Source of the DNA: Escherichia coli
Lineage (GTDB): Bacteria; Pseudomonadota; Gammaproteobacteria; Enterobacterales; Enterobacteriaceae
Assembly: GCF_017348835.2 (NCBI RefSeq)
Contig: NZ_CP071375.1
Strand: one strand, 5' to 3'
DNA length: 64,000 bases
A program made the translations under genes and the position numbers. The notes beneath the pieces were generated by a model. It ran no database searches. It was not told the origin of the DNA and saw only the letters and a program-made list of their open reading frames with translations. Positions 22,457 through 34,983 of this stretch are shown piece after piece; the first letter of the stretch is position 1; every line of letters starts with the position of its first letter.

Positions 22457-22591
22457 ATGGCAAAGCCGATCATCACGCTCAATGGCCTAAAAATCGTCAT
22501 TATGTTGGGAATGCTGGTCATTATTCTCTGCGGTATCCGTTTTGCCGCCGAGATCATCGTGCCGTTTATTCTCGCATTATTTATTGCTGTT
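22457..22591 (+). pseudogene. tqsA: 5' fragment of tqsA (AI-2 exporter, AI-2E family), first 45 codons ([12 protein letters not shown]...FILALFIAV); the frame runs into the inserted element and stops within ~30 nt
   Basis: The coding sequence continues in frame only at 34085 ([15 protein letters not shown]...); 11.5 kb of foreign DNA lies between. Confidence 0.85.
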
Positions 22592-22593
22592 AT
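22585..22593. other. attL core, left copy of the junction direct repeat TGCTGTTAT
   Basis: Identical 9-mer at both island/tqsA junctions; tqsA-derived sequence on the left, island sequence on the right. Confidence 0.6.
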
Positions 22594-22667
22594 ATATAAC
22601 TTATTTCACTTAACGCATTGATTTAATTAAATAATTTGCACCACAAAAAGTGCCAAAAATCGCAAAA

Positions 22668-22690
22668 TGACTACACCAGTGACTACACCG
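22668..22690. repeat. Putative integrase arm-type site (TGACTACACCAGTGACTACACCG), left copy; an internal GACTACACC doublet
   Basis: 23-bp exact direct repeat of 33927..33949, with further imperfect similarity for ~40 bp downstream (GAAACAACGTGGAACAA vs GAAACAAGCTGGAACAA). Confidence 0.55.
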
Positions 22691-22800
22691 TTCGGTGCAC
22701 CGTATGAAACAACGTGGAACAAATAGACACAAGAAATATACAGGCGGATCATCTTTCCAGGGGGAAGCGCACCAATTCATGAGGGGCGTTAATGTCGATA

Positions 22801-23203
22801 TGGGGATCCCCACCTACCGGAATTTTTTTCCGGTTAAACGTTAATCAGGCTGGTGGGCTTTACCTGTTCGGTAGGTGTTATGATTATCGTAATACCTTTC
22901 CCCCAATGGGGTAAAAGCATCAACCGTAACGAAAGTCGTTATGGTTGCCACCGATACCCCAAATTTGGGTATCACGAGTAAGCCCCAAAATCTGGGTGTT
23001 ACTCTTACTACCCAAACTACGGGTAGTTTCCGTAGTTTCATGGTCGAGTTGCAGATCTGCAACTCCCCCATTAACCACAGGCGAATTTCCGCCTTCGGTC
23101 ATTCCTTAATCATCTGCGTAATCATAATGATTATTCAGCAAGCGCAATTTTGCGCTTTGCTTAAAGTTCAGCGAGTTACCGCGCCGACTTCCTCAAATTG
23201 AGG
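22801..23203. repeat. Non-coding region packed with at least seven distinct perfect palindromes
   Basis: TGGGGATCCCCA 22801..22812; CCGGAATTTTTTTCCGG 22817..22833; CCCAAATTTGGG 22958..22969; AAACTACGGGTAGTTT 23014..23029; GAGTTGCAGATCTGCAACTC 23046..23065; AAGCGCAATTTTGCGCTT 23140..23157; CCTCAAATTGAGG 23191..23203. Confidence 0.7.
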
Positions 23204-23319
23204 TTTCCGAAAATATCAGCGGGTTAGCGATTAAGCTGACCATTAATTAAACTGCGAAAATGTCGTAGTTGTGAGGGGTGTAGCCAACCCATTTTTGGGC
23301 CGTCGGGAATATCAACCAG

Positions 23320-23601
23320 TTACCGCCGCAACCGCTCCGGCTTCTTCCAGTGGTACGTTATTTTCTCCTTCTCCCGATACATCTCCACGCGGCGACGGTA
23401 GGCCAGCAACTCAAGAACTCTGGTTCGTATGTTGCGCATATCCACGGCATTAAGTTCTATACCATCACGGCGCATCACCTCCGCAACAACACGCGCATAA
23501 TTTTCAGCGGTCACGCTGTCCGGCTGCATGGCCTGTTCGTCAACCTGCTGGCTGATTCCGGCAACGCGGCGGATTAATCCCAGTATTTCGGCTTCTATCA
23601 T
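23320..23601 (-). CDS. Hypothetical protein (93 aa), last gene before the attL-proximal non-coding region
   Basis: ORF in the same orientation as the rest of the island genes; no family recognised. Confidence 0.4.
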   Translation of the reverse strand: MIEAEILGLIRRVAGISQQVDEQAMQPDSVTAENYARVVAEVMRRDGIELNAVDMRNIRTRVLELLAYRRRVEMYREKEKITYHWKKPERLRR

Positions 23602-23654
23602 TGTGCCCCCATCGTTCTGAAAGTCTGGTGTCGTCGGGTCCTTCCTGGAATTAT

Positions 23655-23840
23655 GGCCCGTTACGGGGCGGCGACCTCGCGGTTTTTATCTGTTTATGAA
23701 AATTTTTCTGGAAAAAGCATGTCGGTACTTCTCGAACATAACTATTTGTTTTTAAATAGATACACAATAAAAAGAAACGACACGGTAATCATCTAAAATG
23801 GCGATTTATGACGCTTTCATGTCGTTTCTCAGTTTTGTTC
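23655..23840 (+). other. Lambda-like cos site, left copy, plus orientation: cosN (GGGCGGCGACCT at 23666..23677) followed by cosB-like R2 and R1 elements
   Basis: GTTACGGGGCGGCGACCTCGCGGTTTTT...TTTATGAAAATTTTT matches my recollection of the phage lambda cos region; R2-like AAAAGAAACGACACGG and R1-like TGTCGTTTCTCAGTTTTG sit at lambda-like spacing. Confidence 0.65.
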
Positions 23841-32297: not shown

Positions 32298-32456
32298 TAT
32301 TGCCCCCTTTCGTTTCTTAAAGAGTTATTTCGTGTTCTATTGCGTTGGGATGTGTCTGATTGTGTCAGGATGATTCAGAGTTGGCAAATGTTGAGGTCGT
32401 ATGGTTTACAGAAACAGGAATAATCAGGATAAAATCATTTAAATTCATGTTAATAC

Positions 32457-32490
32457 AAAGGCATAAAATATTGTTTCATGCCTTTTTTCT
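32457..32490 (+). terminator. Plus-strand hairpin with U-run (AAAGGCAT ... ATGCCTTT TTTTCTC) in the alpA-int intergenic region
   Basis: Read directly from the sequence; there is no annotated plus-strand gene upstream. Confidence 0.45.
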
Positions 32491-32671
32491 CGCCATTTAA
32501 AGAGTGATTCGCTAGTGTATAAAAAACCAGTAACACATTAAAAATCAGCCACTTATAAATCCGTACACTTTTTCGCCTCTTGTTCGTAGTTGTTCCGCAT
32601 TGTTGCTCATTGTTGCATGTTGTATCTGTTCGCATATCCAGTATGCGCATACTGAAAAAACACGAAAAAAA

Positions 32672-33901
32672 TTATTTTCTTCTGGCTACTGGTAGCGTGG
32701 TTACGTTTTCATGTGTTCCCGCCAGTATCCCTAACCGCTCCGTCCACATATCCAGCGCATTGCGTTTAGCATCCAGATAACGGGAATGATTATAAACTCG
32801 CTGCATTCCTGGCATCTGATGACCTGTAAGCTGCTCCACGACATGCGGATCAACGCCTAAATCGTTCAGCATGGTTGTAAAGGTGCGCCGGATGTCATGC
32901 AGTGACCAGTGAGGATGATTAAGCCTCCTGTGCGCTAATCTTCCATACTGCGATACGCTGGCCTCCTGTTTCGCTTCCCCCAGCAATAAGCCCGTGTGCC
33001 TGTTCTGCTCCACCAGCTGCGTGACGAACGGCAGGATCGCTTCCGGTATGGGCCGGAATATTGCGACCTTCGTTTTGCTGTGCTCCTTCGGAACGGTCCA
33101 TAGCATTTCCGTAAAATCCCACTCCCCGATCTCCGATAGCCTCAGTTCTACCGTCCTGGCTCCGAAGACAATCAGGAGGCGGATTAACGCGACGTAGTAA
33201 GGGGAAAATATTTTTTTGTCCAGTGCCTGCAATAATTCGCCAAGTTCTTTGTTACTTAAGACACGTTCGCTTATATCCGGTTTTTTCCCAACGTCCGCCA
33301 CGTTCAGATCGTCCAGAACGTTGCTGATTGCATAGCGCCGCCTACGGCAGAACTTAAGCGCCTGTTTGCACGCCTGTAGCACGAATCCGGCAGTAACAGG
33401 CGTTCGCTTTGCCACCTGGTCAAAACAGGCCAGCCAGTGCCGTAGCTCGCATTTATCCAGCGGCATAGCACCAATCTGCTGTATTACGTGATTATTAAGT
33501 CGCCTTTTCAGGGCGATATAATCCACGCGGTTTTCCTTTACGTAATACTCAAGCCAGTAGGTGAGCGCATCGCCAACCGTTACGGGCTTTAACGCTTCCT
33601 GTACGGTGTAATTCATCTCATGACGTGGATTTTTCCCCTCAGCCAGCCATGTGCGACACTGTGCGGCTTTTTCCCTGGCTGCTTTCAGGCTCAGATCAGG
33701 ATAACTTCCCAGCTTAATGCGTTCGGGTCGTGTCTCCCTTCCCGTTCCGGCCCTGTATGTGAAATACCAGGTCAATTTCCCTGATGTTAAATATTTCACG
33801 CTCAGGTTTCCGCCATCACTATAAAACGTGTTTTTCTCCGCTGGCTTACCATGAAGTTTCCTTAGCAAGGTATCGCTCAGTTTGTTCATTGCTCTGCTCA
33901 C
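32672..33901 (-). CDS. int: Tyrosine integrase, P4-like family
   Basis: 409 aa; N-terminal P4-type arm-binding region (GKLTWYFTYRAGTGRETRPERIKLGSYPDLSLKAAREKA) and a C-terminal catalytic domain (HDIRRTF...Y); adjacent to attR. Confidence 0.85.
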   Translation of the reverse strand: MSRAMNKLSDTLLRKLHGKPAEKNTFYSDGGNLSVKYLTSGKLTWYFTYRAGTGRETRPERIKLGSYPDLSLKAAREKAAQCRTWLAEGKNPRHEMNYTVQEALKPVTVGDALTYWLEYYVKENRVDYIALKRRLNNHVIQQIGAMPLDKCELRHWLACFDQVAKRTPVTAGFVLQACKQALKFCRRRRYAISNVLDDLNVADVGKKPDISERVLSNKELGELLQALDKKIFSPYYVALIRLLIVFGARTVELRLSEIGEWDFTEMLWTVPKEHSKTKVAIFRPIPEAILPFVTQLVEQNRHTGLLLGEAKQEASVSQYGRLAHRRLNHPHWSLHDIRRTFTTMLNDLGVDPHVVEQLTGHQMPGMQRVYNHSRYLDAKRNALDMWTERLGILAGTHENVTTLPVARRK

Positions 33902-33926
33902 GTTTTACCCCCTCTTTACGAAAAAG

Positions 33927-33949
33927 TGACTACACCAGTGACTACACCG
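33927..33949. repeat. Putative integrase arm-type site, right copy (TGACTACACCAGTGACTACACCG)
   Basis: Exact 23-bp direct repeat of 22668..22690. Confidence 0.55.
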
Positions 33950-34076
33950 ATCGTTGCACAAAGGGCTACAACGTGAAACAAGCTGGAACAAGGAAAATCA
34001 CAAATCTGTTGATAATCAAAAACATAATGCACAGCCTGAAACATTATGAAACAGCAAAAAACACTAAATGATAAAA

Positions 34077-34085
34077 TGCTGTTAT
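34077..34085. other. attR core, right copy of TGCTGTTAT
   Basis: Island-to-tqsA junction; tqsA sequence resumes in frame. Confidence 0.6.
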
Positions 34086-34983
34086 TCTTAACCCGCTGGT
34101 GCAACACATGGTCCGCTGGCGAGTGCCGCGTGTACTGGCGGTGTCGATTTTGATGACCATCATCGTGATGGCTATGGTGTTGCTGTTAGCTTATCTGGGT
34201 TCCGCGCTCAACGAGTTGACGCGGACGTTACCGCAATATCGCAACTCTATTATGACGCCGCTGCAAGCGCTTGAACCGTTGTTGCAACGCGTAGGGATTG
34301 ACGTCTCAGTTGACCAGCTGGCGCATTATATTGATCCGAACGCGGCGATGACGTTGCTCACCAACTTATTGACGCAGTTATCTAATGCCATGTCATCAAT
34401 ATTTTTATTGCTGCTGACGGTGCTGTTTATGCTGCTCGAAGTGCCACAATTGCCCGGAAAATTTCAGCAAATGATGGCGCGTCCGGTTGAAGGGATGGCG
34501 GCGATTCAGCGTGCGATTGACAGTGTGTCTCATTATCTGGTGCTGAAAACAGCCATCAGCATCATCACCGGCCTGGTCGCATGGGCGATGCTCGCCGCCC
34601 TCGATGTTCGCTTCGCTTTTGTCTGGGGATTGCTGGCCTTTGCGCTTAATTACATCCCTAATATTGGTTCAGTTCTCGCGGCAATCCCCCCTATCGCTCA
34701 GGTACTGGTATTTAATGGCTTCTACGAAGCGTTGCTGGTGCTGGCGGGATATCTGCTGATTAATCTGGTCTTCGGCAATATTCTGGAGCCGCGCATCATG
34801 GGGCGTGGGCTGGGTCTTTCCACATTGGTGGTATTTTTGTCGTTGATTTTTTGGGGATGGTTGTTAGGACCGGTGGGTATGCTGCTTTCCGTGCCGTTGA
34901 CAATTATTGTCAAAATTGCGCTTGAACAAACAGCGGGAGGTCAAAGCATCGCCGTTCTGTTAAGCGATCTCAATAAAGAGTGA
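34085..34983 (+). pseudogene. tqsA: 3' fragment of tqsA (AI-2E family transporter), about 299 codons, separated from its start and promoter
   Basis: Translation [24 protein letters not shown]... continues the 5' fragment at 22457..22591. Confidence 0.85.

Follow-up and report, generated by a model that had tools for sequence, protein, structure and literature searches.

What has become of tqsA, the gene for the pheromone autoinducer 2 (AI-2) transporter, in an Escherichia coli chromosome where its two ends lie 11.5 kb apart, and does the interruption amount to anything more than a mobile element sitting at its customary landing site? The question is raised by a 64,000-nt stretch of contig NZ_CP071375.1 (hereafter the window), which is 100% identical to the chromosome of the pig isolate PE164, whose RefSeq annotation already shows tqsA in two fragments and, between them, an island bearing integrase, capsid and terminase-like genes. 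The inserted segment (window 22594-34076) can, with high confidence, be identified as a phage-inducible chromosomal island (PICI) of the E. coli EcCICFT073/EcCI042 family, integrated at the attachment site (attC) already known in tqsA.

The cut falls within codons 43-46 of tqsA. The 5' fragment (22457-22593, plus strand; in RefSeq 'pheromone autoinducer 2 transporter, missing C-terminus') holds codons 1-45 and 2 nt more, and the 3' fragment (34086-34983, plus strand) holds codons 46-344, such that the initial annotation, which had the gene split after codon 45, was right to within a codon. On the attL side, the open reading frame (ORF) continues to 22621, appending eight foreign codons to the tqsA fragment before a stop and giving an ORF of 54 aa. 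A 9-bp core, TGCTGTTAT, stands on the plus strand at both junctions, with its attL copy at 22585-22593 and its attR copy at 34077-34085, and spans the last base of codon 43 to the first two bases of codon 46. An exact count in the window returns a third copy at 40818-40826, outside the island, which is unrelated and compatible with chance; with an expectation of about 0.68 copies per window, the number of copies carries no significance by itself, and it is the location at both junctions that matters. Joining the flanks (22457-22593 with 34086-34983) yields a 1,035-nt open frame of 344 aa, and the attB site reconstructed in this way matches strain F2_81, where tqsA is uninterrupted, with 100% identity over 600 bp. 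This attB is contiguous in 5,166 of the 5,422 genomes with the locus, and the empty-site genomes align to the attL junction probe at query positions 1-150 and to the attR probe at 151-309, stopping at the core; as these matches end exactly there, the 9-bp overlap is exact. Each half of tqsA, located with the junction probes, occurs at one place only in the PE164 chromosome, and there is therefore no second tqsA copy in it. Thus, the fragments are contiguous parts of one gene, and the earlier claims of a 9-bp repeat at both junctions and of a tqsA that excision would restore are upheld.

As far as can be read from the sequence, tqsA is inactivated by the insertion, and precise excision would rebuild it. 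The island furnishes no replacement N-terminus, since an in-frame TAA (34072-34074) immediately precedes the 3' fragment, and, because this fragment gets neither an island promoter nor an island start, occupied strains are most likely tqsA nulls. In a cryo-electron microscopy structure, the pentameric TqsA exporter is held together by contacts of adjacent H1 helices; residues 1-45, which are cut off from the remainder, likely include helix H1.

Both the site and the kind of element that occupies it are on record. The insert shares the anatomy of the Gram-negative phage-inducible chromosomal islands of Fillol-Salom et al. 2018, ISME J (PMC6092414). In Table S1 of that paper, tqsA is entered as the att gene of EcCI042 (from E. 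coli 042; 11 kb) and of EcCIK1516 (11.4 kb), and their core is given as ATAACAGCA, the reverse complement of TGCTGTTAT; EcCICFT073 and EcCIRM12579 are placed at ycfD-phoQ with the core GGACATATTT, a core also found independently in an O157 sister element. The table has no tRNA gene among its E. coli PICI att sites; the initial annotation had called insertion within a coding gene atypical, a view that this table overturns, as a coding or intergenic target is typical for the family. The gene was also among the conserved genes disrupted by prophage integration in Bobay et al. 2013, and Mageeney et al. 2020 (PMC7192596) have it, with three E. coli elements, among their 19 new computational candidates for 'regulated gene integrity'. 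The observation is thus correct but ordinary: the element family, the tqsA target, the 9-bp core and the regulated-integrity idea are all already in the literature, and little is offered here beyond their confirmation.

The features by which PICIs are recognized bear out the assignment, with one departure. The insert is a small island with short att repeats at a PICI attC, and its 11.5 kb fall within the usual range of about 8-12 kb; its int, alpA and replication genes run unidirectionally, all on the minus strand; and it carries two helper-like cos sites, each a cosQ-like element with a cosN of the lambda/phi80 type. The departure concerns Rpp, as a TerS-like gene lies in the slot where Rpp would be expected. 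Rpp is evidently not universal in the family, since EcCIRM12579 and the O157:H7 copies carry the same TerS-like variant.

Comparison with individual relatives sharpens this placement. With EcCI042 and EcCIK1516 the island has in common the target gene, the 9-bp core, a size of about 11 kb, the gene order and the arm repeats. The EcCI042 locus, fetched for the comparison, has the same gene order and junctions, an integrase identical at 405 of 409 residues, and the same YlcI/YnfO insert beside a truncated ORF. It differs in having a 144-aa, RppA-sized ORF where the window island has a frameshifted TerS-like gene, and a broken head decoration gene is a feature of the PE164 copy. EcCICFT073 and EcCIRM12579 are the prototype Gram-negative PICIs, and the same element is known as 'prophage Sp7' in O157:H7 Sakai. 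EcCIRM12579 and the O157:H7 copies show about 92% DNA identity to the window island over most of its length, and this group shares with it the attP arms, the decamer positions within them, lambda-like capsid and decoration genes, two cos sites and PerC; these islands differ in integrating between ycfD (roxA) and phoQ, at the core AAATATGTCC.

A parallel might also be drawn with satellite P4, which is likewise a small integrative satellite with AlpA/Vis-like and Icd-like genes and an integrase (Int) with an N-terminal Arm-DNA-bind_3 (DUF4102) domain. The P4 genes sid, psu, delta and the alpha-type primase gene are neither annotated nor matched in the window island, which differs from P4 in its lambda-type cos sites and lambda-like capsid gene, and its helper is therefore to be sought among lambdoid phages rather than P2. 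PMC6092414 states that PICIs and P4 are distinct families. Accordingly, of the initial description of the integrase as P4-type, the assignment to the broad DUF4102 class stands by its Pfam domains, whereas a P4-like nature of the element gives way to a PICI of the EcCICFT073/EcCI042 family. In NCBIfam, the integrase gave only weak, sub-threshold matches (51 bits to PRK09692, for which the cutoff is 434), and nine other island proteins gave none. Finally, the island resembles the elements of regulated gene integrity, such as the Listeria comK prophage and the sigK skin element (reviewed in Mageeney et al. 2020, PMC7192596), in that a conserved gene is interrupted and excision rebuilds it; it differs from them in that its mobilization logic is that of a helper-phage-dependent satellite.

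Occupancy of the site is recurrent across the species. Among 5,426 complete E. coli genomes, probes spanning the junctions detect attL in 245 and attR in 246, or about 4.5%, and these account for nearly all of the approximately 255 genomes with a split tqsA site; this occupancy figure is a modest addition to the record. The same 4.5% or so of complete genomes would be natural tqsA knockouts by way of the tqsA PICI. The islands at this site vary in content, with a replication module of either the RepA helicase or the primase type and a packaging module with either the TerS-like gene or the 144-aa RppA-sized ORF. Such variation suggests mosaic islands that have an int-att module in common and were acquired more than once.

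An excised form is probably represented among natural sequences. An exact search of IMG/VR with the predicted attP junction returned one contig of 11,098 bp (L008, IMGVR_UViG_3300045988_152974), whose ends overlap by 119 bp, as in an assembly path that closes into a circle of about 10,979 bp. The P arm, TGCTGTTAT and the P' arm stand in this contig just as the reconstruction has them, and the integrase encoded there is identical to that of the window at 408 of 409 residues; the contig carries the primase-type rep rather than the helicase type, and an ORF in the TerS-like slot that, taken together with that of EcCI042, spans 144-146 aa. Its start coincides with the 9-bp core and its end lies 110 bp past the core, as would be expected of an assembly graph from a sample in which the integrated and the excised form occurred together. 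The simpler reading of the contig is an excised or replicating island, and this evidence for the attP form in a natural contig is a modest addition to what was known. With the core common to attP and attB, the earlier proposal of a site-specific, integrase-mediated insertion with a 9-bp crossover core is borne out.

The sequences around the core add candidate binding sites for the integrase. The 23-mer TGACTACACCAGTGACTACACCG occurs exactly at 22668-22690 and 33927-33949, where no copies would be expected by chance, and lies 75 bp inside attL and 128 bp inside attR, much as the initial annotation had it. It is a tandem pair of decamers, (T/G)TGACTACACC, set within a longer, 76-nt imperfect direct repeat between the two arms: the P' arm (22664-22739, plus strand), with decamers arranged as TGACTACACC(AG)TGACTACACC, repeats the P arm (33923-33998, plus strand) with 76% identity. 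Four of the five copies of ACTACACC in the window fall in the arms, and the decamer positions are kept in the tqsA, ycfD-phoQ and yifB types of the island despite their other cores. The integrase itself (409 aa; 32672-33901, minus strand) matches in Pfam Arm-DNA-bind_3 (E 1.1e-17), Phage_int_M (E 1.4e-3) and Phage_integrase (E 3.5e-16). Because the protein has an arm-binding domain and the decamers are positionally conserved in sister PICIs, it is plausible that the tandem decamers (T/G)(G/A)ACTACACC are arm-type sites bound by its N-terminal Arm-DNA-bind_3 domain; the arm-type sites of the initial annotation therefore survive as good candidates, at the grade of plausible. Inspection by eye around the core found a palindrome, GTTATATATAAC, in attP and the motif GTTAT-N3-TAAC in attB, and by the same inspection convincing core-type Int sites could not be defined there.

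The three kinds of sister att site provide a clean natural comparison bearing on how a tyrosine integrase changes its target specificity. The reconstructed attP sites of three tqsA-type islands were aligned with that of the O157:H7 ycfD-phoQ-type island (for the window, 34047-34085 joined to 22594-22625; for the ycfD-phoQ type, L002 2448-2560 and 13500-13667; and, for the yifB relative, L007 14240-14420). The arms of the tqsA and ycfD-phoQ types are nearly identical for more than 200 bp on each side, and the attP sites differ in only two respects, namely two nucleotides per decamer (GTGACTACACC versus TTAACTACACC) and an equal-length block of 31 bp that holds the core. The window integrase differs from other integrases of tqsA-borne PICIs at 1-4 residues, whereas it is 91% identical to that of the ycfD-phoQ type (in the O157:H7 TW14359 copy). 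Of the 37 substitutions between these two, the arm-binding residues 1-95 take 21, in parallel with the two changed nucleotides per decamer; residues 96-213 take a further 10, and the catalytic domain the other 6. A third relative, in yifB of E. coli ETEC4079 (L007 13001-14420) has an integrase gene with 84.6% DNA identity and the same P arm up to the crossover, followed by another core. This insertion in yifB, a gene of the Mg-chelatase family, adjoins ilvL, and its cargo differs in having ProQ/FinO, antirepressor and lytic transglycosylase genes; a search for its left end found no arm decamers or P' anchor within 13 kb in L007, such that one junction of this element is known. These patterns plausibly fit arm-type sites combined with a swappable core. 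Since sister integrases with the same arms use the intergenic ycfD-phoQ site and yifB, the choice of target suggests drift in core specificity rather than selection for a regulated gene.

The site of the island's tyrosine integrase is the 9-bp core TGCTGTTAT, common to attP and attB. How such an island would move may be proposed by analogy with characterized relatives: a lambdoid cos helper phage would induce the island; AlpA would drive a cycle of excision and replication, with the iterons downstream of rep as the starting point of the latter; and the DNA would be cut at the lambda-type cosN and packaged into helper-derived particles. Precise excision would regenerate tqsA, normally in a cell about to lyse, and the cell with an excising island would then presumably lyse rather than survive with its restored gene. 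At the left edge of the window, another tyrosine integrase gene (WP_000876986.1; 1-1254) lies beside rspB and runs off the edge. It probably marks the end of a prophage, which could be a candidate helper.

Several points weigh against the identification of the locus as a PICI that moves in this way. A tblastn search for RppA and RppC homologues found none in the window, and hence the Rpp packaging mechanism cannot simply be assumed for this copy, whose packaging step may differ from the mechanism characterized for EcCICFT073. The binding of Int to the decamers, like the dependence on a helper and induction by it, is something that we infer, and the circular path of the IMG/VR contig could in principle also be given by a tandem array. 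Moreover, the PE164 copy bears two lesions: the TerS-like gene is frameshifted, with a run of seven A residues at 24371-24377 (codons 8-10) where sister islands have eight, and a perfect 32-bp tandem array in the decoration gene has 3.5 copies (25253-25363) as against 1.5 in sister islands, an expansion by 64 bp that shifts the reading frame. With these lesions, the PE164 copy may transfer poorly. Together with the one truncated ORF, they also raise the prospect that this copy is an immobile, decaying remnant of a PICI and hence a permanent tqsA knockout, which is unlikely though to be taken seriously. The 64-bp expansion is more likely real. The A missing from the homopolymer may stem from an error in sequencing, given that ynfF and ynfM of this assembly bear frameshift annotations too, or from a slippage-prone tract. 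Those two genes (9102-11524 and 18244-19496) are themselves either real pseudogenes or carriers of assembly indel errors. Against decay, no damage is seen in int, alpA, rep, the two att sites with their identical cores, the two cos sites or the iterons; the truncated ORF is present in EcCI042 too; and, in PMC6092414, deletion of the capsid or decoration homologue of EcCICFT073 left the interference of that island with phage lambda unrelieved.

The other alternatives concern the meaning of the repeat and of the target. Nine base pairs are a typical length for the target-site duplication of a transposase, and a 9-mer that has three copies in the window against 0.68 expected is not rare, which might invite a reading of the repeat as such a duplication or as a chance recurrence rather than an att core. 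The likelihood of this is close to nil: islands that differ in cargo occupy this one position in 245-246 genomes, the junction of the circular, excised form contains the 9-mer, the element encodes a tyrosine integrase beside its end and has no annotated transposase, a repeat search returned no inverted repeat pairing the island ends, and sister elements use a different core at a different fixed site. The transposase duplication is accordingly rejected, being effectively refuted by the recurrent fixed site, the attP junction and the integrase. The other question is what the insertion might do for the host. The initial annotation invoked active lysogeny, in which, as in other cases of regulated gene integrity, the island would excise and reintegrate in living cells and thereby switch AI-2 export by TqsA. 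The inactivation of tqsA by an island that furnishes no substitute, the restoration expected upon precise excision, the recurrent insertion at an identical position, the existence of a circular form in nature and the listing of tqsA as a computational candidate by Mageeney et al. 2020 would all accord with it; nevertheless, a close integrase with the same arms goes to an intergenic site, as well as to yifB, and the tqsA site is empty in about 95% of genomes. The proposal thus lacks support and is very improbable. The gene yifB is also among the regulated gene integrity candidates of that survey (PMC7192596). Improbable too, if slightly less so, is a broader conjecture that combines two elements: that the int-attP module is naturally re-targetable, with near-constant arms and catalytic domain, such that a 31-bp block, two nucleotides per decamer and some 30 substitutions in the N-terminal half of Int would switch it among tqsA, ycfD-phoQ and yifB; and that the tqsA insertion, rather than using a neutral landing pad, was perhaps selected as a reversible switch of AI-2 export altering quorum-dependent behaviour or helper induction.

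Returning to the PICI itself, all its major genes lie on the minus strand in the order int, alpA, rep, capsid and packaging from attR, and the genes named below are on that strand unless stated otherwise. Inward of the integrase gene lies that of a 62-aa AlpA-family regulator/excisionase (32109-32297; Pfam Phage_AlpA, E 5.6e-18; phrog_2790). The YlcI/YnfO-family gene (31429-31608), the sole annotated plus-strand gene with an assigned family, abuts the truncated ORF at 31604-32051, and this region (31429-32051) looks like an old insertion or replacement in the early region of the island. In the KY179 island, an intact ORF of 299 aa is seen where the window island and EcCI042 have the YlcI/YnfO gene beside the truncated ORF. 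Several small ORFs accompany the gene for an Icd-like homologue of cell-division inhibitors (31040-31234), and the RefSeq annotation has a DUF4222 protein before the RepA-family helicase/primase-like replication protein (28448-29854), reading from attR. Three 17-nt iterons, TTTTnnnCCTCACTTTT, spaced 83-85 bp apart (28265-28449), lie directly 3' of this RepA helicase gene and are, judged by sequence and position, the probable replication origin of the island. They are followed by genes for a single-stranded DNA-binding protein (SSB; 27589-27999) and a PerC-family transcriptional activator (27306-27578), the accessory gene 'perC' of E. coli PICIs.

The remainder is given over to capsid and packaging functions. 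The homologue of the lambda gpE-like major capsid protein (25442-26497; phrog_29) aligns along its full length with PDB 3BQW ('putative capsid protein of prophage'; E 2e-227) and also matches lambda-type major capsid entries; the head decoration gene broken by the two extra 32-bp units spans 25031-25430; and an ORF of 137 aa (24605-25018; phrog_1999) is weakly similar to the C-terminal part of head maturation protease/scaffold proteins. The TerS-like gene (23857-24398; phrog_57), in the slot of the RppA-sized ORF of EcCI042, is bracketed by the two lambda-type cos sites, which were compared with those of lambda, phi80 and CFT073 (PMC6092414 supplement). One lies on the plus strand (23635-23706), with cosN GGGCGGCGACCT at 23666-23677, and the other is inverted relative to it, on the minus strand (24503-24574), with cosN at 24532-24543; cosN is exact at 23666 (+) and 24532 (-), each has a cosQ-like sequence upstream, and together they form a 72-nt inverted repeat that is 81% complementary. 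A further ORF, of 93 aa (23320-23601; phrog_1561), lies beyond them towards attL. The PDB sequence search gave no match for the 137-aa ORF or the repaired TerS-like protein, and portal, TerL, tail and lysis genes are absent from the island's annotation and PHROG matches, in which capsid, decoration and TerS-like genes alone represent phage structure and packaging.

The arm repeats also have a bearing on how PICI att sites have been recorded. For EcCIDI14, the sequence published as the 'att site core', CGGTGTAGTTAATGGTGTAGTTAATT, equals the reverse complement of the paired arm decamers, and this pair is situated some 125 bp into the ycfD-phoQ-type island (L002 13508-13534). Some published PICI att cores are thus probably arm repeats rather than crossover sites. 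As a separate observation, the tandem-looking 'cores' given for the yejM-luxR PICIs in Table S1 of PMC6092414 (two copies of TTTGTAGTTATACG) resemble arm repeats.

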